IMG/VR virus record: IMGVR_UViG_3300025572_000008 | Span: 16,606-80,605 of that record | Source of the DNA: a virus | Length of the DNA: 64,000 nt | Direction: 5' to 3' (one strand) | In this document: positions 24,247 to 52,214 of the stretch, piece by piece | How positions within the stretch are numbered: the stretch's first letter is position 1 | Layout: each line of letters begins with the position of its first letter | The notes under the pieces: generated by a model | Told to the model about the DNA's origin: nothing | Seen by the model: the letters and a program-made list of their open reading frames with translations, nothing else | Database searches by the model: none | Translations under genes and position numbers: made by a program

Positions 24247-25065
24247 ATGAACAAGTACCTGGAGAAAATCGCGGAGAAGGGGGAAGAGCCTAAGCGTAAG
24301 AACCCCGGCACGGAGTTTGGAAAGGCGTACGGTGCGCTCATAGCAGGAGGTGTCGGAAAGGTTCCGGTTGCACTCCTATCGAATTACACTAGCCGTAAAA
24401 TTAGGGCCACTATCAATGATACGGGCGTGTCGGATCACGGTACGATCAAGAAGTTCATGCGAGACAACAATCTGCACAAGAACGTCACGTTCAACACCCG
24501 AGAGCATATGAAACGCAGGGAAAAGCTGGACCCCCGTTCGGCCAACACTGTTTCACACTCCAACGTTCGTGGTGCGCCGGGATATATCTACAATCCCTCC
24601 GGGGGCCGAGGATTCATAGCCGGAGTGAAAAAGCCAGGTCTCGGCTCGAGAAAGACCGTCAACAAAGACATCATCATGCACGAGCTGGGACACGCCAAAG
24701 ATCTCCAGACCCATGCCAAGCTAAAGCGTGTCGGTACGATGATCGGCCGACATCCTCGATCGCACGGTGTGTTTGAACTGGCAACCGTCGGAGCTCTGTC
24801 CAACGAGAAAACCAGAGACTACGCCCCTGCCGTAGCAGCCATTCCAGGTGCCCTTGTTCTCCGGGAAGAAGGTGCAGCGAACTATCACGCCTACAAAGGC
24901 ATCAAGGCGCACAAGGGCGGAAAGGCGGCGAACCAGTTCCTGAAGAAGGTCGTGTCGAAAAACATGGCGAGCTATGGCCTGGCCGCCGCCGCGCCGGTCG
25001 CAGCGGCCTATGTCGGTAAGAAGGTCATGGACAAGTGGTCGCCGAGAAAGACGGAGAAAAAATAA
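24247..25065 (+). CDS. NKYLEKIA-tagged protein with zincin (HExxH) domain
   Basis: Starts MNKYLEKIA; IIMHELGHAKD plus downstream EEGAANY. Confidence 0.65.
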   Translation: MNKYLEKIAEKGEEPKRKNPGTEFGKAYGALIAGGVGKVPVALLSNYTSRKIRATINDTGVSDHGTIKKFMRDNNLHKNVTFNTREHMKRREKLDPRSANTVSHSNVRGAPGYIYNPSGGRGFIAGVKKPGLGSRKTVNKDIIMHELGHAKDLQTHAKLKRVGTMIGRHPRSHGVFELATVGALSNEKTRDYAPAVAAIPGALVLREEGAANYHAYKGIKAHKGGKAANQFLKKVVSKNMASYGLAAAAPVAAAYVGKKVMDKWSPRKTEKK

Positions 25066-25068
25066 GCG

Positions 25069-25833
25069 ATGCCGACGATCTCTGCTCAAAAGGTGCGAGG
25101 GTTTCTAGGCAGCCCCAGAACTTATCCTCGAAGTGGCCTCGGGTTTGGCATCGGAGGCGGTGCAATTTCGGCGGCAAAACCAAATATGCCGAATACAACA
25201 AATAGGATCAGCGTGAAGGGAACGACGGGAAAGCTTCGTCCGGTCTCTCACGAAACTGCAATACAGAAGGTAAAAGCCGATTTTCAGACGAAGTCGGCAG
25301 ATTTTAAAGGAACAGGAATGCTTGAAAAGATCAAACAGCTGGCTTTGGAAAAGTGCGCCGGCGACGAGGAGAAGGCGCTTGAATTTCTCGAAGGGTTTTA
25401 CGAAGAGCTGCTAACCAAGAGCGCAGCCTTCGGTTTCAATGTATCCGATCTGGCTGGTGAGTTCACCAAGGGAATTGGAAAGGGTTTGGCTGGTGTCACC
25501 CTGGGTCTCGGCGTTTCTGGTTTGGCTACGGCTGCCAAGAGCATTGCGAACAGCAAGATGCATAACCAGTTTGTCGAAGCACTGCGTCGAGCCATCTCGA
25601 TGAACCCGATCTTGCGTCAGGCCAAGCAAGAGAAGGTCATGAACTACGCTGAGACGATCTTCAAGTTCGCTCCTCACGTCGCCACTGATGCCAATCTGCT
25701 ATCATCGATTCTGGCCAACGCTGTTCACGGTGAAGGTATCGACCCTCAGACGATCAGGACCCTGACGGAACTCGAATCCCGCTACGCTCAAACTTCGTCG
25801 GCGTCTTCGTTTTCTCCTAAAGCCTATGTCTAA
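25069..25833 (+). CDS. putative internal head protein
   Basis: 254 aa; TKSA/EKCA sites and a Gly-zipper segment. Confidence 0.6.
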   Translation: MPTISAQKVRGFLGSPRTYPRSGLGFGIGGGAISAAKPNMPNTTNRISVKGTTGKLRPVSHETAIQKVKADFQTKSADFKGTGMLEKIKQLALEKCAGDEEKALEFLEGFYEELLTKSAAFGFNVSDLAGEFTKGIGKGLAGVTLGLGVSGLATAAKSIANSKMHNQFVEALRRAISMNPILRQAKQEKVMNYAETIFKFAPHVATDANLLSSILANAVHGEGIDPQTIRTLTELESRYAQTSSASSFSPKAYV

Positions 25834-27136
25834 CAAATACCTTGAGAAGGTAGCTGATCTGCGACAGTACGGCCGAATGGCCCGAGAAGCGGTCAATGCC
25901 GGTCGGCGGAATCCTATGACCACGGCCTTTGGAGCAGGCGGGGCATTGGACGGTGCGCTGAGCACAACTCGTCAGGGAGACGAGGGAAATTTTCGTCTCG
26001 GCTTGAGAGGAGTAAGGAACACCATAGTCGGTGCTGCCAAAGGTGCGGCGGCCGGCAAGGCGCTCGAGCTCAGCTATCAGCATCTCAAACGCAAGGCCTT
26101 GGCGGACGCAAATCCGTTTCTCGATAAAGCGGCAAGCTTGGCCGGTGTTGGAAAGCATCTGGCCAAGACGTGGAAGGAGACTCCGTTTTCCGCAAAGGCC
26201 TCTCTCGGAATCAGCGCGACGGGCCTAGGCGTCAGCGCGGCCAATTACAAAACCAATAAGGACAACCGAGATCGTGCCGCGCTGCAAGCAGAGCTGGACC
26301 GAAAGGCCCTTGCTGCGCTTCGAGGCATCCATCGAGAACTGAAGGCTCAAGGCCAGGAGAAACGGGCTGAGGATGAGAAGGCCTATTATGGCGAGGCGGC
26401 GGGGGCGGCCGGCGTCTACTCCGGTCTCAAGATCACGAAGAATCAGTTCGATCGCGGCCATCTGACCGGCCGTGAAACACTCTACCACGGCTCGACCGCG
26501 GAGAACATCGCCAACATCAAGAGGCAGGGCTTGAAGCCCAACCGTTCCGATAAGGGTGTCTCCGGAGTCGTTGGTCTCGGCGAGAAGAACAAGAATCTGG
26601 TGTTCGCGGAGAAGCGGAAGTTTCACGCCCAGAACTACGCCGCGCAGCAGGAAGCCATCTCTGCCGGGAAGGTCAAGAACCAGGCCGACCTGATCCGGGA
26701 GCAGAGGAAGGCGCTCGGAAAGGCGATGAAGCGCCATCTGACCGGTCAGAACAAGTACGTCGCAAAAATCAATTTGCCGACCTGGCGTCAGGAATATCGA
26801 GGCGTGACGAACCCCGAGGTCAAGACGATGTTCCGGAAGATGGAGGGCAACCTCTTCTACAAAATCCAGCCTAAGAGCGTGCAGAAGGCGCAGAAGAATA
26901 TGATCTACAAGAACTTCCAGACGAACGTTCACGTCCAGCGGGGCGAGCACGGGATCGGCACGGAGTACATCAAAGGATCGAAGAACTACCGACGCAACTC
27001 GGCCCGGGAGATCGGTGAGTACATCGCTCACAACAAGGGCCGGTTTGCGAAAGGGCTCGGTAGGGCGGTAGGCGGCCTGGGTATGGCCGCAGCCGGAGCA
27101 GCCCTGTTCAATCACTCACGCAAGAATAATGCTTAA
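25826..27136 (+). CDS. NKYLEKVA-tagged polyprotein with ADP-ribosyltransferase-like domain
   Basis: Starts MSNKYLEKVA; Gly-zipper segments; TLYHGSTAENIANIKRQGLKP...LVF pattern of HGT-type ART folds. Confidence 0.55.
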   Translation: MSNKYLEKVADLRQYGRMAREAVNAGRRNPMTTAFGAGGALDGALSTTRQGDEGNFRLGLRGVRNTIVGAAKGAAAGKALELSYQHLKRKALADANPFLDKAASLAGVGKHLAKTWKETPFSAKASLGISATGLGVSAANYKTNKDNRDRAALQAELDRKALAALRGIHRELKAQGQEKRAEDEKAYYGEAAGAAGVYSGLKITKNQFDRGHLTGRETLYHGSTAENIANIKRQGLKPNRSDKGVSGVVGLGEKNKNLVFAEKRKFHAQNYAAQQEAISAGKVKNQADLIREQRKALGKAMKRHLTGQNKYVAKINLPTWRQEYRGVTNPEVKTMFRKMEGNLFYKIQPKSVQKAQKNMIYKNFQTNVHVQRGEHGIGTEYIKGSKNYRRNSAREIGEYIAHNKGRFAKGLGRAVGGLGMAAAGAALFNHSRKNNA

Positions 27137-28628
27137 GCTTATCAAGTCGGATCCCTACTTCGCCGAGAACGAACCTGCTATCCGGATCATCGATGGTACC
27201 GACCGCTCCGGCCTCATCAAGGCCGCGGCGGACAGCAAGATCGTCGAATACATCTCTCGCATTCACCCGGAGCCCAACAAGGTCTACCTCCACATCCTGG
27301 CGATGGGGGCAGGGGAGTATTTCGGCGCCAATCGGAACCAGGACTATTTCCCAGAGAACACGCTCCTGGATTACTACAAGACGTTCGAAACGTCGCCGGC
27401 GCACGTCTTCCGCAATCACATCAACAAGGATCCTGCCAAGGCGATCGGCCAGGTGGTCTTCGCCATCTACAACGATCGCATGCACCGGGTCGAGCTCATT
27501 GCTTGGATCGACAAAGACAAAGGCCGAGACGTCATCGAACGCATTGAGCGAGGAGACTACCCTGCTACGTCTATGGCGTGCCGCACGCCTTACGACGTTT
27601 GCAGCATATGCGGTAACCGGGCTCATTCCCGACAGGAGTACTGCGAACACCTCTCCGAAGAGCTAGGGCGCATTTATCCTGACGGACGCAAGGTCATGGC
27701 CTTGAACGTTGCCCCGCTTAAATTTTTCGATATTTCCATCGTAATTCGGCCGGCCGACGTTACCAGCTCCGTTTTGCAGAAAGTCGCTTCTGACGAAGGA
27801 CGTGTCATAGGTTCCGCCGAACTCGCTGAAGTTGAAGGTCTGACCGAAAAGACAGCTACGCTCAAAAAGCTCAGTGAGTTCATCAAAGAGGTCACGGACG
27901 GTGTGGTGATCGACGCCGATCCAAATCTCGATGCGGTGCTTGACAAGGTTTCGGACCCGGACGAGAGGGCGCTCGACATTCTTCGAAACTACGAGCTCAA
28001 ACCCGTGCTCGAATCCCTGGCTCATCTAGGAATCAGCCCTTCGATTAGCTGGCTGTCGGAGCTTATCGCTCGAAAGACGATGGGCAAGCAAGGAGAAGGG
28101 ATTGGAGACTTGGTGGCTGGCTACATCAAGGAAGTCGGAATCGAAGGGCTTCCTATGGCTGAGAAGGACTTTGGAGAACCGCAGGGGCCCAATCCTGCTA
28201 TCATCTCGGCTTTGATGCCTTCCGTGAAACAAGCGTCATTGCTCCCAGAGTATGTCACTGATCGAGCTTTCGTTCATGTGAACGGATCGACTTACATACC
28301 TGGAACCAACGTAGGTTTTGTCGGTAATGGCCCACACGTTGAGATGACTCCTTACGAGCGATTCCGCCAGCAGAATCTATTGCCTCAATCACAAACACCA
28401 GGAGGACTTCCTGGGATCGTAAAGACTCTGATGATTATCGGAGGGGCGGCGTTGGCTGCAAAATGGTACATCACACAGATGATTGAGCAGAAGATGAGGA
28501 GAAATCAGGCTTCTCACCAAGCTGGAGAGATTAAAATAGGTTTAGTCGAAAAACGCGCCGATGATTATCGATCAACGTACCGCCTCGCCGAAAGCGCAAT
28601 GGTGCGGCTGATTAAGAAGCGCTGTTAA
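27129..28628 (+). CDS. prohead maturation protease (HK97/assemblin-type, Zn ribbon)
   Basis: FRNH..KDP..AIGQV, catalytic-like TSMAC, CSICGN...CEH, FFDISIVIRPAD; located in the head cluster. Confidence 0.8.
   Translation: MLKLIKSDPYFAENEPAIRIIDGTDRSGLIKAAADSKIVEYISRIHPEPNKVYLHILAMGAGEYFGANRNQDYFPENTLLDYYKTFETSPAHVFRNHINKDPAKAIGQVVFAIYNDRMHRVELIAWIDKDKGRDVIERIERGDYPATSMACRTPYDVCSICGNRAHSRQEYCEHLSEELGRIYPDGRKVMALNVAPLKFFDISIVIRPADVTSSVLQKVASDEGRVIGSAELAEVEGLTEKTATLKKLSEFIKEVTDGVVIDADPNLDAVLDKVSDPDERALDILRNYELKPVLESLAHLGISPSISWLSELIARKTMGKQGEGIGDLVAGYIKEVGIEGLPMAEKDFGEPQGPNPAIISALMPSVKQASLLPEYVTDRAFVHVNGSTYIPGTNVGFVGNGPHVEMTPYERFRQQNLLPQSQTPGGLPGIVKTLMIIGGAALAAKWYITQMIEQKMRRNQASHQAGEIKIGLVEKRADDYRSTYRLAESAMVRLIKKRC
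28532..28539 (+). promoter_or_regulatory. putative late promoter motif TAAAATAG
   Basis: TTAAAATAGGTTTAG is identical to the 15-mer at 31666; lies in the 3' end of the protease gene. Confidence 0.6.
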
Positions 28629-28690
28629 TTCGAAACAAAAATTTCAAGAGGTCTCTATTGCAGCACATGGAGGCCACCTTAAAAGGACTA

Positions 28691-29812
28691 ATGATGACTA
28701 TGACTTTGGATGAACTTCTCTCGGATCTCGAGAAAACCGCAGGCCTGAATAAGGAAGCGGAAATGACCGAAGAGGCTAAGGCTCTGGAGAAGGAAGAGGA
28801 CAAAGAACACGAAAGCGCCAAGGAGAACATCTCCAAGGCGAAGGCGGCCATAGAGGCCGCTGAAAAAGACGTCGAAGACGCTAAGAAGGTCAACGACAAG
28901 GAGAAGGAGCATTGCAAGGAAGCACGTCTTCAAGGTGCTGCCCTGGCGCAAGAGGTGATGAGCAAGGTTGCCGCCCTCAAACTTACTACTAACACCACTG
29001 ACAAGGAACCTGAAATGAAGAAAGAAGCTGCTGAGGCCGGTAAGGCTCTGGCTGACGCCCTCCTGGAAAAGCTGGCTGAAGCCGGCGACGTCAACCTGCA
29101 TGACGGTGTGGCCCCTGGGTCTGTGCCCCAGAAGAACATCGTCAATTCGGCGCAAGTCGTTGCTGAAGACGACGCCAAGATCAAGCCTATGCCGACTGGC
29201 GATGGCATCAAGAACGAAGGAACGATCAACCAGATTCTGGAAGGCATCATCGCCGACGCAGTCGCTCAAGGTGCTACCCCTCACGGCCAAGGCGTGGAAG
29301 CTAAGGCTGCTCCGATCACTGCGGCAGAAGGCGGGGTTGAAGACCAGGCTGTGCCTAATCAAGTTCCGACCGACGAGCAGGAAAAGGCTGCTGCCGTTAT
29401 CGCTCTGGTTAACGATGGTTATGACTTCGAGTCTGCTGTCGAAATGGTCAAGGCTGCTGCCGAAGAGATCGAGCGTGAGGAAAGCGTGCAGATCAAGCAG
29501 GCTGCCTTGGGTGCTCTGCTCGATCGAGGCGTGGACTTCGACCAGGCCGTTGAGATGGTGAAGAAGGCGAACGCTCTGGTCCCCGCTGCCGGCCGTGCGC
29601 TGATGGCTCCCGCCAAGAAGGGTCTGAGCCGCGCGGCTAAGATCGGCATCGGTGCTGGCGCCGCGGGTGCCGTGGCCGGAGGAGCTGCGATGGCTGCCCG
29701 CCGTGGTCAGGAAAAGAAGGCTGCCCTTGACGCTCTGGTTGCGTCCGGCGTGGATTTTGACAAGGCTGTCGAGCTGGTGAACGCTAAGGCCGCCGAGATC
29801 TACGGAGAGTAA
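28691..29812 (+). CDS. scaffold-like head protein with three helical repeats
   Basis: Start moved to the AAAGGA SD; Ala/Glu/Lys-rich; repeats K.AA..AL...G.DF..AVE.V. Confidence 0.65.
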   Translation: MMTMTLDELLSDLEKTAGLNKEAEMTEEAKALEKEEDKEHESAKENISKAKAAIEAAEKDVEDAKKVNDKEKEHCKEARLQGAALAQEVMSKVAALKLTTNTTDKEPEMKKEAAEAGKALADALLEKLAEAGDVNLHDGVAPGSVPQKNIVNSAQVVAEDDAKIKPMPTGDGIKNEGTINQILEGIIADAVAQGATPHGQGVEAKAAPITAAEGGVEDQAVPNQVPTDEQEKAAAVIALVNDGYDFESAVEMVKAAAEEIEREESVQIKQAALGALLDRGVDFDQAVEMVKKANALVPAAGRALMAPAKKGLSRAAKIGIGAGAAGAVAGGAAMAARRGQEKKAALDALVASGVDFDKAVELVNAKAAEIYGE

Positions 29813-29820
29813 GTACAGAG

Positions 29821-29851
29821 ACTCCCCTTGCGACGACGTGAGGGGAGTTTT
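29821..29851 (+). terminator. intrinsic terminator
   Basis: ACTCCCCT/AGGGGAGT stem followed by TTT. Confidence 0.6.
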
Positions 29852-29896
29852 CGCTTATAAGAACAATCCCTTGATCAACAAGGGTTAAGCCCGACA

Positions 29897-30361
29897 ATGA
29901 GCAATAAATATCTTCTAAAGCTTGCGGCTATTATCGACGTTGATCCGGAAGGAAACGTTGTGCGAATTCACTCGGATCCGGATCTCGAACATCGAGCTAA
30001 CAAGGCCAAGCTTATCAATCCCTCTCAAAATCGGGCCAACAAATTTCTCCGCCGCGTTGTAGTGCCAGCCTCGATCGTAGGTAGTGCAGCCTACGGGGCG
30101 AAAAAGCTTTATAGCGGTCGCAGGGAAAAACGTGCGGAATTCCTGAGCCCCGAACGAAAGAAAGAGATAGCTCAAACCGGCGTTCTCGTCGGAACTGGAG
30201 TCGGGGCCTCAGCTGCGCTCGATCGCTTCGTTAAGCCACGAATGAATTTTTCCGGTCCTCTTGGGAAGGCCAAATATATCGGCCTAATAGGAGGAGCGAA
30301 CCTCGCTACAGATTACGCCGCAGTTAAAATTAACAAGGCAATTGAACATGCCCGTACCTAA
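29897..30361 (+). CDS. NKYLLKLA-tagged putative internal head protein
   Basis: Tag, internal EKRA site and two Gly-rich hydrophobic segments. Confidence 0.65.
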   Translation: MSNKYLLKLAAIIDVDPEGNVVRIHSDPDLEHRANKAKLINPSQNRANKFLRRVVVPASIVGSAAYGAKKLYSGRREKRAEFLSPERKKEIAQTGVLVGTGVGASAALDRFVKPRMNFSGPLGKAKYIGLIGGANLATDYAAVKINKAIEHART

Positions 30362-30385
30362 TGACGGGCAAGGATTAACAACGAA

Positions 30386-30991
30386 ATGAGTAACGTCGCA
30401 CAAACTCTCCGCGAACAGGCCGCGGAACTTCGCCTGACTCCAGAGAGCGTCGCAATCGAGATGTTGAAGGAAGCTGGGCTGTCTGAAGAAGACGCTCGCT
30501 TCGAAGTTCTCCAGACTCTTATGGAAAAAGAGGCCCTGTCTGCGCTGACGGACAAGGGCATCGACATGGAAGAGGCGGTGAAGTTAGTCAAGGCTGCGAA
30601 CATCAACGTTCGTGAGCTCACCAACATCACTCTCGAACCGGAGACCAATCCGACGGCCGATCTCCTAGAGAAGGCAGCAACGTACATCGAAGCTCTCGAA
30701 GGACGTGTTGCCGAGCTCGAGACCGAGAATGCCAAGCTCTACGAAGATCTGGAAAAAGCTGTAACCGAGGCGTCTGCAGCGAAAGAAGAAGAACCGGAGC
30801 TGCCGGAGTCTTTGAGCAAGCTGGCTTCGGTCGGTGCTTTTACCAACGAGGACCTGGCTGAGCTGAAGCGTCTTAATCCAGAAGTGCTGACTAAGGTTGC
30901 ATCCGTTGCGGATGAACCGTGGAGCCTTGGGGCTCCCGCCGGGGTAGCCCGTCCTCAGACGGATCCTTTGTTGGAGTTCATCCTCAGCTAG
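30386..30991 (+). CDS. scaffold-like coiled-coil protein
   Basis: Shares the repeat EKEALSAL..KGIDMEEAVKLVKAA with the 28691 protein. Confidence 0.65.
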   Translation: MSNVAQTLREQAAELRLTPESVAIEMLKEAGLSEEDARFEVLQTLMEKEALSALTDKGIDMEEAVKLVKAANINVRELTNITLEPETNPTADLLEKAATYIEALEGRVAELETENAKLYEDLEKAVTEASAAKEEEPELPESLSKLASVGAFTNEDLAELKRLNPEVLTKVASVADEPWSLGAPAGVARPQTDPLLEFILS

Positions 30992-30996
30992 TCATC

Positions 30997-31314
30997 GTGA
31001 CGAACAAGTACCTCGAGAAACTCGCCCGGCATGACAAGGGCGAGAACAACAAAGTCTCCGACGTTGCAAAGAAGGCGATCCCTGCCAGCGCGGTCGGCGG
31101 TGCATTAGGTGCAGCGATCGGCCTGCAGAATCACAAGAGCATGGTTCAGCGATTGAACCGCTCCGGTGCCCTGGGTCGCCAAGTTTCTCCCATCCTTGAT
31201 CGAGCTTTCAAGAGACGAGCCGTGGGGCGCAGCTCTCTCGGCTATGCCGGCGTCGTCGGTGGTCTCTCGGCTTTGAACGCCGCCATGAAATCGAAAAGCT
31301 CGTCTTCCCAATAA
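30997..31314 (+). CDS. NKYLEKLA-tagged small basic protein
   Basis: GTG start VTNKYLEKLA; Gly-zipper AVGGALGAAIG. Confidence 0.65.
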   Translation: MTNKYLEKLARHDKGENNKVSDVAKKAIPASAVGGALGAAIGLQNHKSMVQRLNRSGALGRQVSPILDRAFKRRAVGRSSLGYAGVVGGLSALNAAMKSKSSSSQ

Positions 31315-31322
31315 CAATCTCC

Positions 31323-31625
31323 GTGAACAAGTACTTAGAGAAAATCGCCGCCGACAAGGAAAAGAAATACAGCGTCCGCAATTCGGCTATCGCAGGTGGA
31401 CTGCTGGGAGCAAACGTTGCCGGTACGTGGTCTATCTCCAATCAGTTCAAAGAAGATCTTGTCGACTGGGCAAAACGTCCAGGGTCCCCTGATCTGAAGA
31501 AGTTTCCGAACATGAAACCCTTCAGTGCACGGACGCTTAAAGCGGCCGGCAAGGGCGCAGCCGTTCTCGGTTCTCTCGGCGCCGCGGAAGCTGCAATTCG
31601 CAATCGCTTTCAGAAGAAGAAATAA
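31323..31625 (+). CDS. NKYLEKIA-tagged small basic protein
   Basis: GTG start; Gly-zipper segments. Confidence 0.7.
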   Translation: MNKYLEKIAADKEKKYSVRNSAIAGGLLGANVAGTWSISNQFKEDLVDWAKRPGSPDLKKFPNMKPFSARTLKAAGKGAAVLGSLGAAEAAIRNRFQKKK

Positions 31626-31634
31626 TCGGTTTTT

Positions 31635-31660
31635 GCTCCGAAATAATCGGAGCCGTTTTT
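31635..31660 (+). terminator. intrinsic terminator
   Basis: GCTCCGA/TCGGAGC stem followed by a T-run. Confidence 0.55.
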
Positions 31661-31666
31661 CTGCAT

Positions 31667-32217: not shown

Positions 32218-33111
32218 ATGAGCGGATACAACCTCGAAACTATCAACGTTCAGTTTCTGAACCAGTCCTTCCTGGACAAGATCGATCAAGGTCTGACTAA
32301 GGAAGCCGGCGTTGCCATCTCGGCCTTTGTGCGCCAAAAGCTCCGTGAAGACGGCTTCACCCGCAAGGTTCTGAACCCGATTAGTGTCACGGCTGCCGAA
32401 CTCGACCGTCAGGTGACGGAAGAGCCGACGATCATCGTCGAAAAGGAACCGGATTCGATTGCTGCCAACCTGCCGTTCCTGGGCCGCGCTGAGATCCGTT
32501 ACTGGAAAACAGCCCGCTATCCGGTGACCTTCCAGAAGATCTCTTCTGCTTCGTTCAAGAAGAGCAAGTTCGAGCTGGCTACCTACCGCACGGACATCCG
32601 TACCGTGCTGCAGGAAAACAGCGTCAAGGACATGCAGAAGCAGGAAGACAGAAACTTCTATGACAACGTCATCCAGATGGCCACCGACAACAACAATGTG
32701 TTCAACATTTCTGGCGGTTTCACGAAGGCTAATCTGGTGGCAGGCATCAAGAACATGCTCCGTCACCAGTTGCCTGTCGGCTGCCTGCTGATGACGCAGT
32801 CGATGTACGCTGATCTGCTGGCCTTCCCCTCCACTGAAATCGGTTCGCCTGCTGCCTCGGATCTGTTCCGCGGTCAGGGTACGCTGGACACCTTCTTCGG
32901 CTACAAGGTGATCGTGACCAACAAGCACGACATTCTGCCGGATACCCAGTGCCTCGTCTTTGCTCCGCAGGAATACCTCGGTCAGTTCTACGCCCTCCAG
33001 GATGCCACCGTGTTCCTGAAGGTCGAACAGGACATCATCGAGTTCACCTCCTACGAAGCGGTCGGCGTAGGTATCGGCAACGTCAACGGAGTCGTTGTCC
33101 TGAACTTCTAA
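32218..33111 (+). CDS. major capsid protein (HK97 fold)
   Basis: 297 aa; E-loop/backbone-helix pattern (IRTVLQENSVKDMQKQEDRNF), C-terminal YEAVGVGIGN; strongly biased codons; terminator follows; TKEA site at residues 27-30. Confidence 0.8.
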   Translation: MSGYNLETINVQFLNQSFLDKIDQGLTKEAGVAISAFVRQKLREDGFTRKVLNPISVTAAELDRQVTEEPTIIVEKEPDSIAANLPFLGRAEIRYWKTARYPVTFQKISSASFKKSKFELATYRTDIRTVLQENSVKDMQKQEDRNFYDNVIQMATDNNNVFNISGGFTKANLVAGIKNMLRHQLPVGCLLMTQSMYADLLAFPSTEIGSPAASDLFRGQGTLDTFFGYKVIVTNKHDILPDTQCLVFAPQEYLGQFYALQDATVFLKVEQDIIEFTSYEAVGVGIGNVNGVVVLNF

Positions 33112-33162: not shown

Positions 33163-34662
33163 CTAGAGTTTCAACTCCCACTTAGTCACACCGCAATCGT
33201 AAAGCTTTCTATAGCCGTTACGACGACAGTTTTCTGCTTCTGATAACGTTTCGTCAAACGTCTCTAAGCGTTTTGGAAGTTCCTTCCTTTGGAAGGCTCT
33301 ACGATCGTACCTTCTTTGGCCTCTTACCCACCAATATCTGGGTTCTCCGTGACCTACCAAGGTGAATCCGGTAGAATGGTATACCTTTCCAGTGCTCCAC
33401 GACCGATCGGAGAAACTGACTATTTTCTCGAAACGAGATCCGTGCTCTCTCTTGAACGCAGACAGGAGCTTACTAAATCCGCCTCGAACATGTCCGTCTG
33501 AACAAAATCTTTCGAGACAGATCTCTCCCGGAGGGCAGTTCTTGGATGAAAACATCATGGCTGCAACCAGCATTCCTTCTTTAGTGTACAACCCGTAACA
33601 CAGTTCGCACGCAGAAGGCTTACCCTGCATATGATGCTTGTCTACGAACGCCCCTATTTCTTTCATGGAAGCTAGACGAACTTCCAAGTCTCTCGCGTTG
33701 AACTTTCTATCAGAAAGCCCTAGTTGAGACTTAAGCCAGGAGATCGTCTTTTCCTTTCCGAAAACCCAGTCGTCCTCCCAGATATGGATAAGATGAATAC
33801 CGTATTGGTTAGCTTCGAGGGTCTTTTTAAGATGGTACTTTCTGTCAGGCCTAAACTCTTCGGTGTGCCATCTTAAACCGTTATATTCTATGGCAATTCG
33901 AAGAGAGGGGATGTAGATATCCAGTTTTGATCCATTAGGAAGAGCTATCTCAGGTAAGGCTTCGAGCCCGTAAGACTCAAGGATAGTCAGAATTTCCTGA
34001 ACGGGTTCCGATGAAAGACCTCCACATTTCTCGCATCCATGACCTCCTAGGTGGTCATACGCAAGCTGGGTAAACTCACCGTGTTTGCTACATATGATCC
34101 TTACCTTGTCGTGCAGTCTATCAAACGAAACAAGGGAATAGTCGTATTTATCACCATGGACTTCCTTTGCTCTGGCGATGAATTCCTTTGGGGACAAAGC
34201 GTGTTTTTTGCCAATAGCTTCCCTTCCGCACTCCGGACATCCCGTACCGTTGTTCAAATGGTTTGCAATCGTCGGGAAGAAGGAGATTTGATGTATCGGA
34301 CAGATAACTTCAATCTTGTCTACCGATCGACCGATCACTGCCCGTGAATAGTCATACTTGTCCCCGTGTACCTTTCGAGCCCTTTCTAAGAAAGACTCCC
34401 TGGTAATCCCTCGAAGAGCTCGTATTCTTTCTCCCGTTGCATCGGCTTTGCACCTGGGGCATCCGCCTCGGCCCCGTAAGTGGTCGTGAGCAAATGGAGT
34501 AAAGACGCAATCGTGGATTCGGCAGCGGACTGAAATCCTTTTATTGACGGTTAGAAAGGCCGTGTTCGAATAGTCGTACTTATCTCCGTATTTGCTAATG
34601 CAAAACTCTACAAAGCTTTCAGGCGTCCACTTACGACGCTTGTTAGAGCCCGGTGATGTCAT
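33163..34662 (-). mobile_element. free-standing homing-endonuclease-like gene (Zn-finger repeats + PD-(D/E)xK nuclease + GNAT-like C-terminal domain)
   Basis: Three (H/Y)GDKYDYS...C..H...H....GCP.C repeats; LDIYIPSLRIAIEYNGLRWH; C-terminal LERFCS..GGFSKLL..SFSDRSW.G.VY..TGF; lower GC; antisense insertion in the head cluster. Start moved to 34662. Confidence 0.75.
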
Positions 34663-34944
34663 ATTCCTATCTGTAGTTAACTGGACATTACGAATTTTAA
34701 GTAAGGTCATGAGCGTCGTCAAGCCTGCGCAGAAGCAATCCGGACTATCGAAGCTAAATAAAGCCCAGGCCCCAGAGGGGACCTGAGCCCTAGACCGGTT
34801 TACAAACATGGAAGGTTAGGGTGTAGCGGCGTTGGTTGACCTGCGTTGAACAGTTAGCGGTCGTTGTCAAGATATCCTCCAAACGACAGGTGCGATACCT
34901 CGGTTGTTTGCGGCGTATGGGTACCGTCCTTCCCTGCCATCATC

Positions 34945-35033: not shown

Positions 35034-35357
35034 ATGGCCGGCAAAGCGAACCGCTATATCTCGAAGGTAGTGAAATTTCTTGACCGTCTCTCCGGTCATT
35101 CTGCCAGAGAGTGGAAGGTCAAGTCTGACATTCTCTCACACGCTGCCAAGAAGGGTATTACGCCGCAGCGAGCGGAGCGCCGGGCCCGAGTCGAAGCAGG
35201 CCGATCGTTTCAAACGAGAGCCAAGACCGGTGTTGTAGGCGGAGCTCTCGGAACCGCCGGATTTCTCGGTCTTCATAAGTATCATCAACACAAAGACAAT
35301 CAGATTCTTAAAAAGATCGACTCCATGTACCGGAATCCTGATGGGTACGATCGTTAA
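35034..35357 (+). CDS. small basic protein with Gly zipper
   Basis: Start MAGKANRYISKVV (tag-like); GVVGGALGTAG. Confidence 0.6.
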   Translation: MAGKANRYISKVVKFLDRLSGHSAREWKVKSDILSHAAKKGITPQRAERRARVEAGRSFQTRAKTGVVGGALGTAGFLGLHKYHQHKDNQILKKIDSMYRNPDGYDR

Positions 35358-42682: not shown

Positions 42683-43186
42683 TCAAGCAGCGGTTTGTTC
42701 AAGTTGAAGCTTCGCAGAAGCTGCGGCTGGCGGAGGTTCCGATGGGACCCAAAGATGCTTCTCAATGGGATCCGGGACGACATAGTCGATGATCTGCGAG
42801 ACGACGTCCCAACTCCCGTTTGCCAGGCCACATCCTATAAGCGGAAAGTGGACCGGAAGTTCCTTCCAGCGAGCCATCACTGCGATTTTTTCAAAGCACG
42901 AACGGACACCATCGTAATCGACATAGACGACGTTCGGATTCCGACCGAAGGTCTCCTGAGTGATGGCATTGGCGATAAGAAGATGGTCATGGACTTTGTA
43001 GAAGATGACGTCTCCGACCTTCAGGCCGGCGCGTTCATACTCCTTGCGGTAGACGGCATAGCAGCCTGGCCAGGTCGCTCGGATCTGCTTAGCCACGCCG
43101 CTGCCCATGACGCCTTTCGCATTGCAGCCATGGACGATGATGCCATTCGGCACCCGTAGGAGATCTCCGACGTGTTCTTGGATCAT
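42683..43186 (-). CDS. macrodomain protein (ADP-ribose processing)
   Basis: GDLL..PNGIIVHGCNAKGVMGSGVAKQI, FPLIGCGLANGSW. Confidence 0.9.
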   Translation of the reverse strand: MIQEHVGDLLRVPNGIIVHGCNAKGVMGSGVAKQIRATWPGCYAVYRKEYERAGLKVGDVIFYKVHDHLLIANAITQETFGRNPNVVYVDYDGVRSCFEKIAVMARWKELPVHFPLIGCGLANGSWDVVSQIIDYVVPDPIEKHLWVPSEPPPAAASAKLQLEQTAA

Positions 43187-44619: not shown

Positions 44620-44633
44620 ATTACTCGGCCCGC

Positions 44634-45960: not shown

Positions 45961-47097
45961 CTAGCTCCAGGGCGCATCGGATGCGGTCGAGGCACCTGGT
46001 GCGGTGCTTGAGCTGTCTGAAGACACAATCGCTTCTACTTCTCCAGCTCTGGCGTTGGGTTGGCCTTGCTCCTCAACGACTTCTCTAAGCTTTGACAACA
46101 AGCGAGCACCAGCTTCGGGATTCAGCTGGCTGAACCAGTTCAATCGCCCCATGAGTCGACTGATGAACGCGCTCGGCGTGAGACCGCTGCGTGCGGCCTC
46201 TGCTTCGACACCGTGACGCTTCACGTTGTACACCATGGCTCTGAGTTTGCGACGCTCAGTTTTTTGCAGATTGATCGTGCGGTTCACAACGACGCCGCAT
46301 ACATACTGTCGTTGGAAAGGGCGCATCAGTTTGGTCTTCCTGCGGTTCACTCGGAAGCCGAAGGAGGAGACCGTGTCTGATACAAATTGGAGGATTTCTT
46401 CAACAGCACCAATCCCGTATTTGCCGATCAGATCTTCGTTCGCCGAGATCGTAACGTCATCCGCGTAGATTGTGATCGTATAGCCGTTCCGGTCACAATA
46501 CTCCTTGAGAATCGGTCCGAACGTCAGCGCCGTGACGATGTTGCTCAGCTTGGGGCTGGTCAACCCGCCTTGCGGGACGAAGGCTTGATAGGTGCAGAGC
46601 TCGGAGAGGGTCCGAGCCGGTGCATCTCCAAAACCCAGGTGCTTGAAAATCTGAAACAAATGGTACTGCTTGATAGAGGTGAAGAAATCCTTTAGGTCAA
46701 TGCTAATGACCAGGCCTTTGCCAACATGAGCTCGAGCCATGGTCGGGATACTCCTGCCCCTCTCAAAAGCATGGATGTATCCAGGTACTTCAACTTTCTC
46801 CAGAATCTCTTTCAAGATCCTGTATTGCACTGCTCTCATCAACCTGTCTGGATTGTGCAGGATCCGCAATTTCCCACTCTTCCCCTTCTTTTTCAGATAG
46901 ATGGTGGAGTAGTGCGTCGATTTGTTCCGTCCAAGCAAGGTCAGCAGCTTCGCAGACTTCCATTTCAATAAGGTCGCCAGCTCGCTGTTGGTCGACACGT
47001 TGAACGGTTCTATCGGCACATTCTCCGCCAGTCGAAGTTGTCGCCTGGTCTGAACCGTCTGAGGAGTTGTGGTCTGTTGGGTTTCCTGTACTTCCAT
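45961..47097 (-). CDS. retron-type reverse transcriptase
   Basis: R.LHNP...R.VQ.RIL, region X MARAH (NAxxH-like), IDLKDFFTSI, VPQGGLTSP.LSN, YADD, region Y RQYVCGVVVN (VTG-like). Confidence 0.92.
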   Translation of the reverse strand: MEVQETQQTTTPQTVQTRRQLRLAENVPIEPFNVSTNSELATLLKWKSAKLLTLLGRNKSTHYSTIYLKKKGKSGKLRILHNPDRLMRAVQYRILKEILEKVEVPGYIHAFERGRSIPTMARAHVGKGLVISIDLKDFFTSIKQYHLFQIFKHLGFGDAPARTLSELCTYQAFVPQGGLTSPKLSNIVTALTFGPILKEYCDRNGYTITIYADDVTISANEDLIGKYGIGAVEEILQFVSDTVSSFGFRVNRRKTKLMRPFQRQYVCGVVVNRTINLQKTERRKLRAMVYNVKRHGVEAEAARSGLTPSAFISRLMGRLNWFSQLNPEAGARLLSKLREVVEEQGQPNARAGEVEAIVSSDSSSTAPGASTASDAPWS

Positions 47098-47706: not shown

Positions 47707-47710
47707 TCCT

Positions 47711-47718
47711 CTTATACC
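47711..47718 (-). promoter_or_regulatory. putative early promoter motif GGTATAAG driving the RT unit
   Basis: GTCAA-N16-GGTATAAG on the minus strand. Confidence 0.65.
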
Positions 47719-47728
47719 AGAAAGTTCA

Positions 47729-48169: not shown

Positions 48170-48204
48170 GGTTACCTACGAAGAAAGAAGGTTGGAAGCC
48201 TCGA

Positions 48205-48740
48205 CTGTCCAGGTTTGTCCTGGACTGTCCAAAAAGCTGTCCAAGTTTAAATTTCAAAAACTTCTTGAAAATCAAGGACTTAATGCAGGTTCTGTCCTGG
48301 CTGTCCAATTCCCTCAGAAAAATTGGACACACGAAACCCCGCATGAATAAAGGGAAAAGTCCCAGTTTGTCCAAAAATTTGCCTTTTTCAGGAAAACATA
48401 TATCAGGTTTGTTATGAGCTCAACTCACTAGAATTCAAAAAATACGGCCCTCTTTATATATTATTATATTTGAGGTTTTAAAAAATATTTATATTTATAT
48501 ATATAGAGGAGAATGATTTCACAAGTTCTAAGGGTCAAAAGTAAAGTGATATGTATGTTTCCCTAAAAATTCCAAATTTTTGGACAAATCACTATCTTTC
48601 CCTTTATCCACAAGGGTTTTCGTGTGTCCAATTTTTCTGAGAGAATTGGACAAATTGGACGCGAAATCTGAAAGTGCTTGATTTATAAGGAAAAACGCAA
48701 AGCTCCCTGTCCTGCCGTTTTTGGACAGACTTGGACAGAA
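48205..48740. repeat. large imperfect inverted repeat with TGTCC iterons around an AT-rich core (putative replication origin)
   Basis: Arms ~48301-48403 and ~48548-48652 are clearly reverse-complementary; about 14 TGTCC/GGACA copies, several at 10-12 bp spacing; AT-rich core at 48453-48505. Confidence 0.7.
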
Positions 48741-48781
48741 CCTGCCCTCGCGGCACCTCGACCGTGGCGTAAACCAGGCCT

Positions 48782-48789
48782 TAAAATAG
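48782..48789 (+). promoter_or_regulatory. putative late promoter motif TAAAATAG
   Basis: Right flank of the origin-like region. Confidence 0.4.
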
Positions 48790-49034
48790 GACCAATCGTA
48801 GAAGCGCCAAGGCTGGCGCGGCTTTACAGCCCGTTTTGACCGCTAACCTCCGTCTCCCGTACTTGTCAAATATTCAATCGGAATCCCTGGAGACCTACAA
48901 GCTGTCAGAAAGGCCTCAAATCGAGCTCAGGAGCGTTTAAAGGACCTGAGATATACCGAGATAGCCACCTTGGCATAAAAATCGCTCTACGGGCCTAAAA
49001 ACGGCCTTAGAATCGATTTCCTCTTTAACAACGC

Positions 49035-49661
49035 ATGGACAGTAGCTTCGAGGAATTCAACCACACTCCCAACACAGTCTCTGGAACGTCGATCTTAGCC
49101 GGCGTTTCTACGTCCGACATCGAAACTCTCATGGATGAGAATCCGTCTCTGCGTGGGTACATGCAGGGATATCTGGCGGAGATGATGCTGCGCAGGAGGC
49201 TGATTGGCCTGGATGGAGTTGAAGAGGTGGTTAAGATCCCCGACCGAGATGTTGAAAGAGGTGATCTCAAGATCCTTTATCGAGGTTGCCCGATAACGAT
49301 GGAAGTGAAATCGGTTGCCACCAGCTCCATCAAGGAGGACACGATGAATGGGACCTGGCAAGGTACGGTCCTTGTCAAGAACACCGACCGTCGCGTGGTC
49401 AAGGTCAATGGTCTAGGTGAGGTCACCTCCACTAACCTGGTCAAAGGCGAGTTCGATATCCTAGCCATTTGCTGTTTTGCCGTCAGAGGGTGCTGGGATT
49501 TTGCCTTCATCGAAAGCCGATACCTTCCGGAACCCGACACTCTCCCCGGATTGGTCAAGACTAAATTCTCCATCAACCCCATGCTTACCGGAGGACTGAC
49601 TCACGATCCTCTCAAGGTTCTTGAGGCGGTTCGCCGCAGGAAGACGCAAGCTTTCTGTTAA
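49035..49661 (+). CDS. putative PD-(D/E)xK restriction-like endonuclease
   Basis: GYLAEMML (helix with Glu), RGDLKI...MEVKS core. Confidence 0.65.
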   Translation: MDSSFEEFNHTPNTVSGTSILAGVSTSDIETLMDENPSLRGYMQGYLAEMMLRRRLIGLDGVEEVVKIPDRDVERGDLKILYRGCPITMEVKSVATSSIKEDTMNGTWQGTVLVKNTDRRVVKVNGLGEVTSTNLVKGEFDILAICCFAVRGCWDFAFIESRYLPEPDTLPGLVKTKFSINPMLTGGLTHDPLKVLEAVRRRKTQAFC

Positions 49662-49666
49662 AATAG
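49659..49666 (+). promoter_or_regulatory. putative late promoter motif TAAAATAG
   Basis: 21 nt before ATG 49688. Confidence 0.6.
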
Positions 49667-49687
49667 CAAGGTCAGGAACCGCACCTA

Positions 49688-50308
49688 ATGAACGACGAAC
49701 AAATTGTCCTGAGTCTGCTGAACTTCTATCGCAACGAAGGAATCGACCTTCACCAGATTCTCGACGACCCTATTTTCAACAGCCTGTCTTTGCAGTCGAA
49801 GATCGATATGATCAAGCGACACGCACAGGCCATTCACGACGGCATTCATCCAGGCTTCAGTCGACACGAGCTTCGAGGCATGGGAAAGAGCATGCTTTGG
49901 CATGGCATCCTCGGAGGCATCACGGGCGCCACGGCGTCGAAGACGACGGCCAAGCTGTTCTCTGGAGGTCGACCGACTCCCGCAGCGATTGCTCTCGGAG
50001 CCACCGCTGGCGCGGTTTCAGCACTCAGCATGTCTGCTTTGCGCCGTCTGAACGCTCAGGCTGAAAAGAAAGAGCTTCGAGATAAACTCCTCTCAGTTGC
50101 TCAGAATCCAAGCGACGAAGCTGCCTTACATACGCTCGCCAAGCGCAACCTGCAGAATTCCCTACGTGCCGAGAATAGCTCGGCTTTTAACAAGTTCCTA
50201 GACCGCATTGCTCAGAAGAGCGAAACGATTGCTGCGGATACGGCCATGCAAGAGACTGTTCGATTCAACACCGCTGCCGGACGCAAGATGACAGGACAAA
50301 GCAATTAA
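49688..50308 (+). CDS. hypothetical protein with Gly-zipper hairpin
   Basis: 206 aa; GILGGITGATA...ALGATAGAVSAL. Confidence 0.65.
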   Translation: MNDEQIVLSLLNFYRNEGIDLHQILDDPIFNSLSLQSKIDMIKRHAQAIHDGIHPGFSRHELRGMGKSMLWHGILGGITGATASKTTAKLFSGGRPTPAAIALGATAGAVSALSMSALRRLNAQAEKKELRDKLLSVAQNPSDEAALHTLAKRNLQNSLRAENSSAFNKFLDRIAQKSETIAADTAMQETVRFNTAAGRKMTGQSN

Positions 50309-50319
50309 CCGGAATCAAG

Positions 50320-51210
50320 ATGCTCGCATATACTCTTAAGGAAATCCTTACGCTCGTTCCAGAAGCACTGCCGTTGGTGAAGGAGGCTCACGTCGATCAA
50401 GAGATGCCTCTCAGCAACCGAGATTCTTGCATCGCTACGGCTTTGCAGCTGAAGTACCACGAGGCTGTTGAATACAAGCCTGTTGACGTTTTCTCGATCG
50501 AGAAAGTGGCTAAGGCCGTTCGGCTCTACGGCGTCGAGGATGTCGTTTCCGACCTCTCAGACAAGCTGGTGAAAGCGGCGAACGAACGCAAAGCCAATGC
50601 CGGCCGAGATCTCAAGGCAGAGTACCTGACTAAACAAGCTGCCTTTGACGGCGAAGGTACCGGCTTTCCCGATCCTCAACGCCTGGCTGATCGAGCCGCC
50701 GAGCTCTATAAGGAAGCCCAAGCCGTCGGTGTTGAACCGTCCGAGAACGTTCTTCGCTATTCCGGACATGGGTTCTTGAGTAAGGAAGCGGCTGTAAAGG
50801 CTTTGGCAGCCCGTTTTCAAGCCACCAAGAATCCTGACTTCGTCAAGATTGCTAGCGCTCTGAATCGCCTCGATACCTTGACGATGAAGTCAGAGACCAT
50901 CCAGGATATCTGCTCGACGGTCACTCAGATGGACAAGGAGGCCGGCCTGCATGCCAAGGGTTTCGACTTCTATCGTGAAGCGATCCTCACTAAGGAGGCG
51001 GCGGTTGTCACCAGTCTGAACGTCAAGCTTTGCGGCAAGGAAGTTCCTTACGAAAGCATTCTCCGTGTCGGACGCGACCGAATTGCTCAGTACATCGGGG
51101 AAGACGTCGCCAAGGAAATCGACGCCGGCCCCATGAACGCTAAGCAGGTTCTCGAAACCCTACCTCTTGATTTGCAGCGTTTGATCTGCGATCTGATCCA
51201 GAACGTCTAA
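50320..51210 (+). CDS. K-x-A-rich putative head protein
   Basis: 296 aa; KEA, KVA, KAA, KQA and KIA recur. Confidence 0.65.
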   Translation: MLAYTLKEILTLVPEALPLVKEAHVDQEMPLSNRDSCIATALQLKYHEAVEYKPVDVFSIEKVAKAVRLYGVEDVVSDLSDKLVKAANERKANAGRDLKAEYLTKQAAFDGEGTGFPDPQRLADRAAELYKEAQAVGVEPSENVLRYSGHGFLSKEAAVKALAARFQATKNPDFVKIASALNRLDTLTMKSETIQDICSTVTQMDKEAGLHAKGFDFYREAILTKEAAVVTSLNVKLCGKEVPYESILRVGRDRIAQYIGEDVAKEIDAGPMNAKQVLETLPLDLQRLICDLIQNV

Positions 51211-51214
51211 GGTT

Positions 51215-51448
51215 ATGACCAACAGGTATCTGATCAAGATCGCCGACTCCTACCGGGACCAATATAACCTTCTGGAACGGTTAGTAGATAAAGCTATATC
51301 CCATGATGCGAGAGTCCTATATACCCAGGGTGAAAAACTACGGCCGGGATTAGGGTCTACACTAAGTTCGTACTATGAAAGATCTATGCGAAATCTTCTG
51401 AATAAACATGTTGAGAAGAGACTTCTTAAGTCTAAGAGGATGATTTAA
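51215..51448 (+). CDS. NRYLIKIA-tagged small protein
   Basis: Starts MTNRYLIKIAD. Confidence 0.65.
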   Translation: MTNRYLIKIADSYRDQYNLLERLVDKAISHDARVLYTQGEKLRPGLGSTLSSYYERSMRNLLNKHVEKRLLKSKRMI

Positions 51449-51458
51449 TATTTAACTT

Positions 51459-51770
51459 ATGACCAACAAATACCTCGAGAAAGCCTCTGCGCTAATCCGC
51501 AGCCCTGAAAACATTGGCAGCCGCTTGGCGCAGCTGGGCATGGCCGCGGCCAACCGGCTGCAACGGACCAAGGGAGTTCTCCTCAACCACCAGGGCCGTG
51601 TCGTCAGTGCGCCATCAAGTCTTCCCCGGGGAGAACGTGCGCTCCATGATCATGATAAACTAGTCCGAACGGCGAACAAGCTGCACGCTCAACCGAACAG
51701 TGGCCATCCTGCCGTGAACGAGACCTTCAAGAAAAAGGTCGGTGATAAACCGAACATCTTCTATCGCTAA
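51459..51770 (+). CDS. NKYLEKAS-tagged small basic protein
   Basis: Starts MTNKYLEKASA. Confidence 0.65.
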   Translation: MTNKYLEKASALIRSPENIGSRLAQLGMAAANRLQRTKGVLLNHQGRVVSAPSSLPRGERALHDHDKLVRTANKLHAQPNSGHPAVNETFKKKVGDKPNIFYR

Positions 51771-51773
51771 ATC

Positions 51774-52214
51774 ATGATGAACAGATACCTTGAGAAAATA
51801 GCCGCCTGGCGTGAGCTGGAGCCAGGTGTTCATTATCATGATGAAACCGGCGAATTTGCGGCCACTGACGAAGCACGTAAGCGTATCTATAACGAAGAAA
51901 ATAGGCGTAATACGAGACCTGCGATTAAGGCGCTTGGCACCTTAGGAGCAGCCGTAGGCCTTGGCGTAGGTTTAGTCGCCAGTCGTAAAAACCCTTTTCT
52001 CCAGAAAGTTAAGCGTACCGCTATGGCTACGGGCATCGGTGGAGGCGCTGGGGCGCTGGGAGGTGTTTACATAGGTCACAGCTACAACAAGGACCAAGAC
52101 AGGCGTATCGGCAAGGATCAACGTATCGCCGATCATATCCATCGCCGAGCGGGGAGATACGATCGGACTCGCCATGGCCGTCTATTTGGCGGTGATAATC
52201 CCGATGAGGAATAA
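51774..52214 (+). CDS. NRYLEKIA-tagged protein with Gly zipper
   Basis: Starts MMNRYLEKIAA; ALGTLGAAVGLGVG...GIGGGAGALGG. Confidence 0.7.
   Translation: MMNRYLEKIAAWRELEPGVHYHDETGEFAATDEARKRIYNEENRRNTRPAIKALGTLGAAVGLGVGLVASRKNPFLQKVKRTAMATGIGGGAGALGGVYIGHSYNKDQDRRIGKDQRIADHIHRRAGRYDRTRHGRLFGGDNPDEE

Follow-up and report, generated by a model that had tools for sequence, protein, structure and literature searches.

Eight otherwise different proteins encoded in one stretch of viral DNA (the window: the whole stretch of 64,000 nucleotides from position 16,606 to 80,605 of the IMG/VR virus record IMGVR_UViG_3300025572_000008, numbered here from its first letter) were found to start with the same tag of 8-9 residues, M(x)N[KR]YLxK[IVLA][AS]. 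The tag is read here, at a probability of roughly 0.6, as a two-part N-terminal propeptide of head-internal cargo resembling the capsid-targeting sequence (CTS) of phage T4, with one half (N-K-Y) as the address and the other half as the cutting site. The genome containing the window is a single contig of 168,216 bp (GC 53%, classed as linear, 92% complete), which encodes a split multisubunit RNA polymerase; the window corresponds to its positions 89305-153304 in reverse complement. All eight N-terminal copies had been listed in an earlier prediction made from the letters of the window alone (the original prediction), and each was confirmed in its place on the + strand. The tagged genes, together with one gene carrying a degenerate tag, are as follows (aa, amino acids; pI, isoelectric point).

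24247..25065, + strand: tagged protein of 272 aa, starting MNKYLEKIAE, pI 10.3, with an HELGH motif
25826..27136, + strand: tagged fusion protein of 436 aa, starting MSNKYLEKVA, with an internal NPFLDKAAS at 26111-26137 and a C-terminal domain (aa 181-436) resembling the ADP-ribosyltransferase (ART) fold
29897..30361, + strand: tagged protein of 154 aa, starting MSNKYLLKLA, pI 10.2
30997..31314, + strand: tagged protein of 105 aa, GTG start followed by TNKYLEKLA, pI 11.1, with glycine-zipper segments
31323..31625, + strand: tagged protein of 100 aa, GTG start followed by NKYLEKIA, pI 10.3
51215..51448, + strand: tagged protein of 77 aa, starting MTNRYLIKIA, pI 10.1, the first of three tagged genes in tandem
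51459..51770, + strand: tagged protein of 103 aa, starting MTNKYLEKAS, pI 10.8
51774..52214, + strand: tagged protein of 146 aa, starting MMNRYLEKIA, pI 9.9
35034..35357, + strand: protein with a degenerate tag (MAGKANRYISKVV), pI 10.6, some orthologues of which carry the canonical tag

The GTG starts of the 30997 and 31323 genes are plausible because each lies 6-9 nucleotides past the stop codon of the preceding gene. The 35034 protein, which the original prediction had taken as a weaker copy, proved to carry a diverged form of the tag, some of its orthologues starting with MNKYLEKIAS or MAGSFNKYLSK. A pattern search, which had been proposed together with the original prediction, was done by using a degenerate DNA pattern for N-[KR]-Y-L-x-K-x-[AS], and 9 matches were obtained in the window against 0.00 in 100 dinucleotide shuffles; no strict copy of the tag was found in the rest of the 168,216-bp genome. 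Synonymous codons vary freely between the copies (AAC/AAT, AAA/AAG, TAC/TAT, CTG/CTT/CTC/TTA and GCG/GCT/GCC), and selection therefore acts on the peptide, not on the DNA or RNA. An all-against-all BLASTP comparison of the eight proteins with the tag removed gave no convincing paralogy (best E about 1e-4, in Gly/Ala-rich low-complexity stretches), in agreement with their earlier description as proteins that differ past the tag. No paper with the string NKYLEKIA was found in the library of papers searched. Many of the tagged genes (e.g. 25826, 30997, 31323 and 51459) have no recognisable Shine-Dalgarno sequence upstream, which may bear on the host.

The tag is a trait of a clade. IMG/VR was scanned with the back-translated tag core, and 94 loci on about 60 contigs of up to 193 kb were obtained; 33 of the loci have a homologue of the capsid protein (57-77% identity outside phages Arash and D69); the identities of the relatives were 39-58% for the protease and 39-60% for the portal-position protein, respectively. 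A start codon lies 1-3 codons upstream of the in-frame tag in 190 of 212 copies, and several of the exceptions belong to two unrelated families of small contigs that match by chance. The relatives carry the tag on 143 distinct complete open reading frames (ORFs) with a median length of 117 aa, which fall into at least 70 sequence clusters (E <=1e-4, tag removed). Conservation among the aligned N-termini ends abruptly after the final Ala. Four relatives with complete genomes and one with a 79%-complete genome have 6-8 tag copies each, and the reversed-pattern control gave none. Of the 33 copies in these five genomes, 20 are no more than 5 kb away from the protease gene (about 2 expected at random), and all 33 are within 27 kb. 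Orthologues of the 24247 protein with 45-47% identity retain the tag.

An unbiased check on the tag was provided by homologues of the ART-fold protein, since these were collected through its C-terminal part. Fifteen of the 19 start with N-[KR]-[YF]-L-E-K-[IL]-[AG] after Met and 0-2 further residues, 2 have a divergent variant tag, and the two most distant have none. Two ART-fold homologues begin with MPNIYLDYI..KVA, and a change of tags in concert within a genome was considered and rejected, as the neighbouring genes have the canonical tag. In a control with 596 Gb of cellular genomes, 115 single unrelated matches were recorded, of which 4 of 68 were N-terminal-like, and no phage-related match was found; the matches gave no pointer to the host.

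The relatives were recovered by the degenerate DNA pattern of the tag; a search through the portal-position protein gave none. Near-identical DNA was found in bioreactor metagenomes and related strains in soil and compost metagenomes, and two metatranscriptome runs contain the region (as contigs, in which DNA may be included). Among cultured phages, Arash (of Salmonella) and D69, D181 and D148 (of Vibrio) come nearest, with a protease protein identity of about 43%. A megablast search of the head region against isolated phages gave no close cultured phage, and the 24247 and 25826 proteins had no match in isolated phages by tblastn, which implies that no cultured phage has this cargo.

Five of the eight tagged genes in the window are inserted between conserved head genes and flank the protease and scaffold genes, and the other three stand in tandem at 51.2-52.2 kb. 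The order of the head genes around them is T4-like (portal, small proteins, protease, scaffold, capsid protein) and runs in the window from the portal-position protein (20434) through two small proteins, the protease (27129) and the scaffold-like protein (28658/28691) to the major capsid protein (32218). The head-module genes without an N-terminal tag, and the two genes upstream of the second tag cluster, are as follows.

20434..22284, + strand: portal-position protein of 616 aa, orthologous and syntenic to Arash gp218, a virion structural protein of 615 aa
23095..24234, + strand: head-module protein with a conserved GLAKQAA at aa 31 and more motif sites
25069..25833, + strand: head-module protein with a conserved [LM]EK[FC]AG
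27129..28628, + strand: prohead protease of 499 aa, with conserved hydrophobic-x-K-x-A sites at aa 29 and 216 flanking the core and a third site at aa 473
28691..29812 (longest ORF from TTG 28658), + strand: scaffold-like protein with an acidic N-terminal part and several conserved hydrophobic-x-K-x-A sites
30386..30991, + strand: head-module protein with motif sites at aa 26, 94, 143 and 168
32218..33111, + strand: major capsid protein of 297 aa, with a conserved G-[LM]-T-K-E-A-[GS] near aa 26
49688..50308, + strand: protein of 206 aa with a glycine-zipper segment and an internal NKFLDRIA at 50189-50212
50320..51210, + strand: protein of 296 aa, encoded immediately before the second tag cluster, with four strict copies of the relaxed motif described below and a fifth that begins with F

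The 20434 product is presumably the portal, a name given from its size and position alone. The 27129 protein matches the PHROG family 'head maturation protease' (E 2e-10). An AlphaFold model of its first 260 residues, with a mean predicted local distance difference test score (pLDDT) of 68.5, contains a confident core at about aa 33-217, with the sites at aa 29 and 216 in the disordered edges. In structure comparisons the core came closest to T4 gp21 (5JBL_B; Z 10.5, 132 residues at a root-mean-square deviation of 3.2 A), with herpesvirus proteases next (Z 7-9), and Foldseek gave probabilities of 0.98-1.00 (E 5e-3 to 2e-2). By this model the protease core is of the gp21/herpesvirus assemblin fold. 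Candidates for the catalytic His and Ser residues are H55, H97, S148, S159 and H174, which are invariant in 17 orthologues. A complex prediction in which the core of the protease (aa 36-214) was combined with the scaffold-like protein and with residues 1-40 of the 24247 protein gave a score of 0.01 against a mark of 0.32, and it carries no weight either way.

The second half of the tag recurs in the core head proteins themselves. For the relaxed motif [LM]-x-K-x-A-[AGS], counted genome-wide with within-protein shuffles as the expectation, 27 sites were observed in the whole genome (6.1 expected), 17 in the head module (1.3 expected) and 10 everywhere outside it (4.8 expected); the last comprise 4 in the 50320 protein, 2 in tagged proteins and 4 elsewhere, against about 4.5 expected. 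Close to the N-terminus, a site stands at aa 29 of the protease, aa 31 of the 23095 protein, aa 24 of the scaffold-like protein and aa 26 of the capsid protein; further sites are found at aa 216, where the protease core ends on its C-terminal side, and, several times, in scaffold-like proteins. In alignments of 16-23 orthologues, with those of Arash and D69 included, the hydrophobic, K and A columns show little or no variation, the intervening columns vary, and the motif is mostly followed by A, S or G; in the 30386 protein the K and A at both aa 94 and aa 168 are invariant in 23 of 23 orthologues. The N-K-Y half is absent from these internal sites of the core head proteins, and Arash and D69 have hydrophobic-x-K-x-A sites without the NKY tag. 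The conserved residues are spaced i, i+2, i+4, which would fit an extended strand in a protease groove. A cut at or after the Ala is plausible because herpesvirus assemblins of the same fold cut after Ala, and it would represent a new specificity among phage enzymes.

Three G-x-D-F-x-x-A-V-x-M-V-K repeats occur in the scaffold-like protein. They belong to a module of about 20 residues, (E/Q)EK.AA...L...G.DF..AV.MVK, present in three copies at 28691-29812 with one further copy at 30386-30991; the module is kept in 13 relatives, each repeat holds a hydrophobic-x-K-x-A site, and it may be a coat-binding helix-turn-helix repeat.

Internal copies of the tag were found at the joints of fused proteins. 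The NPFLDKAA inside the 25826 protein, listed in the original prediction as an internal copy, aligns (as NPFLDKAAS) position by position with the tag that opens a 106-aa protein encoded separately in relatives and is therefore a gene-fusion relic; the ART-fold part is likewise a separate tagged gene in relatives. The copies that had been noticed in the LigD-type phosphoesterase-SNF2 helicase fusion (PE-SNF2) were located directly before the helicase core as NKYIEKAA and NRYLVKIA.

13261..15165, - strand: PE-SNF2, with internal tags at 14740-14763 and 14686-14709 in the linker before the helicase core

The SNF2 helicase of relatives is a separate gene that opens with the tag, and in other relatives the helicase is fused to a tagged glycine-zipper protein, with similar two-tag proteins present as well. 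Judged from these sequence alignments, the internal tag copies are fusion relics.

The cargo is basic and diverse. The eight tagged proteins have pI values of 9.9-11.1 against a genome median of 6.5, and for 93% of the 141 tagged ORFs of relatives the value is at least 9. Gly/Ala-rich glycine-zipper segments are found on most tagged proteins (the 24247 protein has its Gly/Ala-rich hydrophobic segment at aa 26-45), and the helicase, the ligase and the small cargo proteins 51215 and 51459 are tagged without a glycine zipper. At 23095-31625 and 49688-52214, such segments are also present on nearly every head-module protein, among them the protease (in its C-terminal tail, aa 435-455) and the scaffold-like protein (at aa 325-345), and they could be a shared means of packing proteins together in the head. 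Recognisable cargo domains are few and include the SNF2 helicase and, in relatives, a DNA-ligase OB-domain protein. For the C-terminal domain of the 25826 protein, a model with a pLDDT of 90.9 gave Tpt1/KptA as the best fold matches (Z 8.2, 84 residues, 20-23% identity), followed by ART toxins (Z 5-7), and Pfam PARP and Tpt1 matches fell under the curated cut-offs; the modelled domain resembles the ADP-ribosyltransferase fold.

The genome also encodes a macro domain protein (42683-43186, - strand; Pfam E 4e-7), which could form a writer/eraser pair with the ART-fold tagged protein. The region at 12332-15165 (- strand) forms a DNA-end repair set, in which PE-SNF2 is followed by a ligase-like OB-domain protein; the ligase of relatives carries the tag and an extra N-terminal domain. 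Arash virions hold a phosphoesterase, ligases and a helicase orthologue (PMC10585845).

A link to the virion is given by the helicase. The SNF2 part of PE-SNF2 is 41% identical to Arash gp217 over its whole length, and gp217 was detected in purified Arash virions by 38 unique peptides and 1148 spectra, with 1149 spectra for gp218 and 1333 for the capsid protein (PMC10585845). The helicase is a virion component in this family; gp217 is without the tag, and a role of the tag is not implied by its presence in virions.

Comparison with contigs of the soil and compost strains showed core head genes that are mostly 95-99% identical, with breaks or replacements at the cargo genes, as follows.

26088-27368 (from just before the internal tag of the 25826 gene into the protease gene): 547 other letters in its place
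29852-30212, at the 29897 gene: 333 letters in its place
31301-31656, at the 31323 gene: skipped
24247 gene: aligned in patches only

The borders of the replacements lie close to the tag positions, and the tags may be recombination points. The internal-protein genes of T-even phages are likewise a highly diverse set with the CTS alone in common (PMC3012670).

With the tag as a two-part propeptide, the N-K/R-Y/F half, which is found in cargo only, would be the address by which cargo is attached to the scaffold core while the prohead grows, and the L-x-K-I/V/L-A half would be the recognition or cutting site of the protease of gp21/herpesvirus fold. Tagged proteins would be built into the prohead core, and after the protease is switched on the tag would be trimmed at or just after its final Ala. 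The strong basicity would keep the cargo with the DNA, with which it would probably be ejected into the host, and fused cargo with internal tags would be cut into modules in the manner of a polyprotein. Core binding, cleavage, presence in the virion and ejection of the tagged proteins are inferred here.

Several points weigh against this reading. The clade lacks a cultured member, and the protease profile gave no relevant match against Pfam and PDB sequences. The sites cut in T4 (L/I-x-E) and phiKZ (S/A-x-E) have a Glu that is missing from the proposed cutting motif, and a small residue follows the tag in only about half of the 142 aligned N-termini, with E in 23 and L or K in 22 (11 each). 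Canonical tags also stand inside fused proteins, so a free N-terminus may be dispensable. Arash packages its helicase orthologue without an NKY tag, which makes the tag dispensable for packaging in that lineage, and the scaffold-like gp223, gp221 and gp224 were covered to 100% in Arash virions with no sign of lost propeptides (PMC10585845), although this coverage, from a set of 116 detected proteins, is compatible with cleavage. The head address put forward in the original prediction is upheld in part: it gains from the T4-like head position, the gp21-fold protease, a diverse, basic cargo that is swapped between strains, the abundance of the helicase orthologue in Arash virions and the two-part layout resembling the T4 CTS, and it is weakened by a cut motif that differs from that of T4 and by the tagless packaging of the Arash helicase.

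Four other explanations were weighed. The tag could be a processing site and nothing else, with head entry brought about by basic charge or glycine zippers and no address role; the sharing of the L-x-K-x-A half with internal sites of core head proteins, the glycine zippers on most tagged proteins (as on the protease C-terminus, the scaffold and other head-module proteins) and the tagless helicase orthologue of Arash would all suit it. This is nevertheless unlikely, as the N-K/R-Y/F half is as conserved as the cutting half, also in homologues gathered regardless of the tag, and is missing from the internal sites of the core proteins; furthermore, the removal of 9 functionless residues is hard to account for, and the helicase, the ligase and the 51215 and 51459 proteins are tagged but zipper-free.

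Ranked behind it as the second of two serious rivals, and improbable too, is an uncleaved docking peptide for the shell or scaffold in the style of encapsulins, with a multivalent scaffold and single-copy cargo. The multiple motif copies in scaffold-like proteins and the 100% coverage of these proteins in Arash virions are compatible with docking, and, as read from the sequence, the tag could form an amphipathic helix, one face of which would consist of Y, L, I and A. The motif is, however, found at both edges of the protease core and in the N-arm of the capsid protein, which suits self-processing better, its i, i+2, i+4 alternation suits an extended strand over a helix, and the internal tags stand at the module borders of fused cargo.

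A tag unrelated to the head (a ClpXP-type degradation signal, a site for a ubiquitin-like cassette, a membrane signal or an RNA translation enhancer) is quite improbable. A ubiquitin-like conjugation cassette is encoded at 53248-57969 (- strand), with ThiF/E1 at 53248-54348, JAB at 54460-55740, a prokaryotic E2 of family D at 55769-56503 and a 68-aa ORF at 57763-57969. This E1/E2/JAB cassette adjoins the second tag cluster, the E1 gene is present in 5 of 5 relatives checked, the tag has two lysines, and many tagged genes are without an obvious Shine-Dalgarno sequence. The link to the cassette is nevertheless unlikely because the tags track the protease and not the E1 gene: they cluster at the protease, and in one complete relative more than 110 kb separate E1 from all of the tags. 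The synonymous variation and the conserved internal copies together rule out an RNA-level element. The tag is charged, 8 residues long and without signal-peptide features, on enzymes of cytoplasmic type, and the occurrence of the motif in capsid, scaffold and protease proteins points to head assembly. Recent gene duplication or chance, to which the tandem tagged genes at 51215-52214 and 30997-31625 could be ascribed, is excluded for practical purposes by the shuffle control (0.00 matches), the lack of similarity past the tag, the scrambled synonymous sites and the count of at least 70 families on about 60 contigs.

Two further genes of the window were noted. The capsid gene is directly followed, on the opposite strand, by a large gene resembling HNH/homing endonucleases (33163-34809, - strand; PHROG 559, E 1e-101), in which a Mom-like region is present, and tail genes come next. 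A reverse transcriptase gene (45961-47097, - strand; RVT_1 E 3e-22) is present in this lytic-looking large phage and is kept in several relatives.

If the two-part propeptide holds, an uncultivated clade of 145-193-kb phages from bioreactors, soil and compost would load 8-10 exchangeable proteins per genome by a 9-residue tag, and candidate injected proteins (anti-defence, host-takeover and DNA-repair) could be listed from sequence only in metagenomic phages. The CTS principle of T4 would then reach beyond T4-like and phiKZ-like phages, and a new specificity of a gp21-fold protease, nearer to the herpesvirus enzymes, would be predicted. A compact protein-packaging tag would become available given a cultured member, and such a tool, which the original prediction had mentioned, is only a possibility. 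A wider version is put forward tentatively, as it is rather doubtful: the tag would be a portable two-part code, in which 9 acquired codons suffice to load the product of any gene, with a herpesvirus-like cut between Ala and a small residue, and the T4 CTS, by the M-x-x-Y-x-E-x-I-A skeleton that it shares with the tag, would be a diverged member of an old and widespread family. This would explain the at least 70 cargo families, including the DNA-end repair set and the ART-fold enzyme delivered with the genome, and also the fused cargo cut into modules in the head.

Among known systems, the closest is the CTS of T4 (on IPI, IPII, IPIII and Alt; MKTYQEFIAE, removed by gp21), in which, likewise, about 10 residues at the very start are common to otherwise unrelated basic proteins; T4 internal proteins are highly basic (bioRxiv 10.1101/2021.01.19.427310). 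A gp21-fold protease, the T4-like head gene order, the two-part layout and strain-variable cargo with a kept tag are common to both, and the ART-fold cargo found here has its counterpart in Alt. In the T4 CTS, residues 4 and 7 matter most for targeting and residues 8 and 10 for processing, and gp21 cuts after L/I-x-E, as phiKZ gp175 does after S/A-x-E (PMC9026906). The same logic is seen here in the invariant aromatic residue at position 4 of the MNKY form and in a C-terminal half that is the motif of the core head proteins. MKTYQEFIAE and MNKYLEKIA share five positions (M1, Y4, E6, I8 and A9), which is suggestive, though 9 residues are too short for common descent to be judged. The differences are that the present tag ends in K-[IVL]-A, with a predicted cut at K-x-A plus a mostly small residue instead of L/I-x-E; that T4 has a handful of tagged genes, against 8-10 per genome and at least 70 families in this clade; and that the cargo includes a helicase, a ligase, many glycine-zipper proteins and internally tagged fusions.

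The phiKZ-like giant phages (phiKZ, 201phi2-1 and SPN3US) also have many head-internal proteins processed by a gp21-type protease, with propeptides thought to direct incorporation, and SPN3US gp53 and gp54 have identical 15-residue N-termini; the packaging of a multisubunit RNA polymerase by these phages is a further likeness. With a length of mostly 80-130 residues, differences from one protein to the next and a cut after Glu (PMC5694885), their propeptides contrast with the one short universal tag and the non-Glu motif described here. An N-terminal signal of at most 30 residues sends P1 DarB, a large helicase-containing anti-restriction protein, and also a reporter, into the capsid (PMC9024508). 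The Dar proteins differ in having no consensus tag, and their loading needs helper Dar proteins.

The clade shares with the herpesvirus assemblins the fold of the protease and, at the predicted cut, an Ala before it, a small residue after it and a conserved residue two positions upstream. Assemblin sites consist of V/L/I-x-A followed by S, and the present motif differs in its Lys two positions before the Ala and its hydrophobic residue four positions before it. Encapsulin cargo-loading peptides are similarly short, portable and used for varied cargo in an HK97-fold shell, but as a rule they sit at the C-terminus, and they attach to the shell itself and are retained. On the reading favoured here, the tag is a case of the known T4-type capsid targeting, in which the tag sequence, the predicted cut site, the much larger cargo set and the fused cargo are new.

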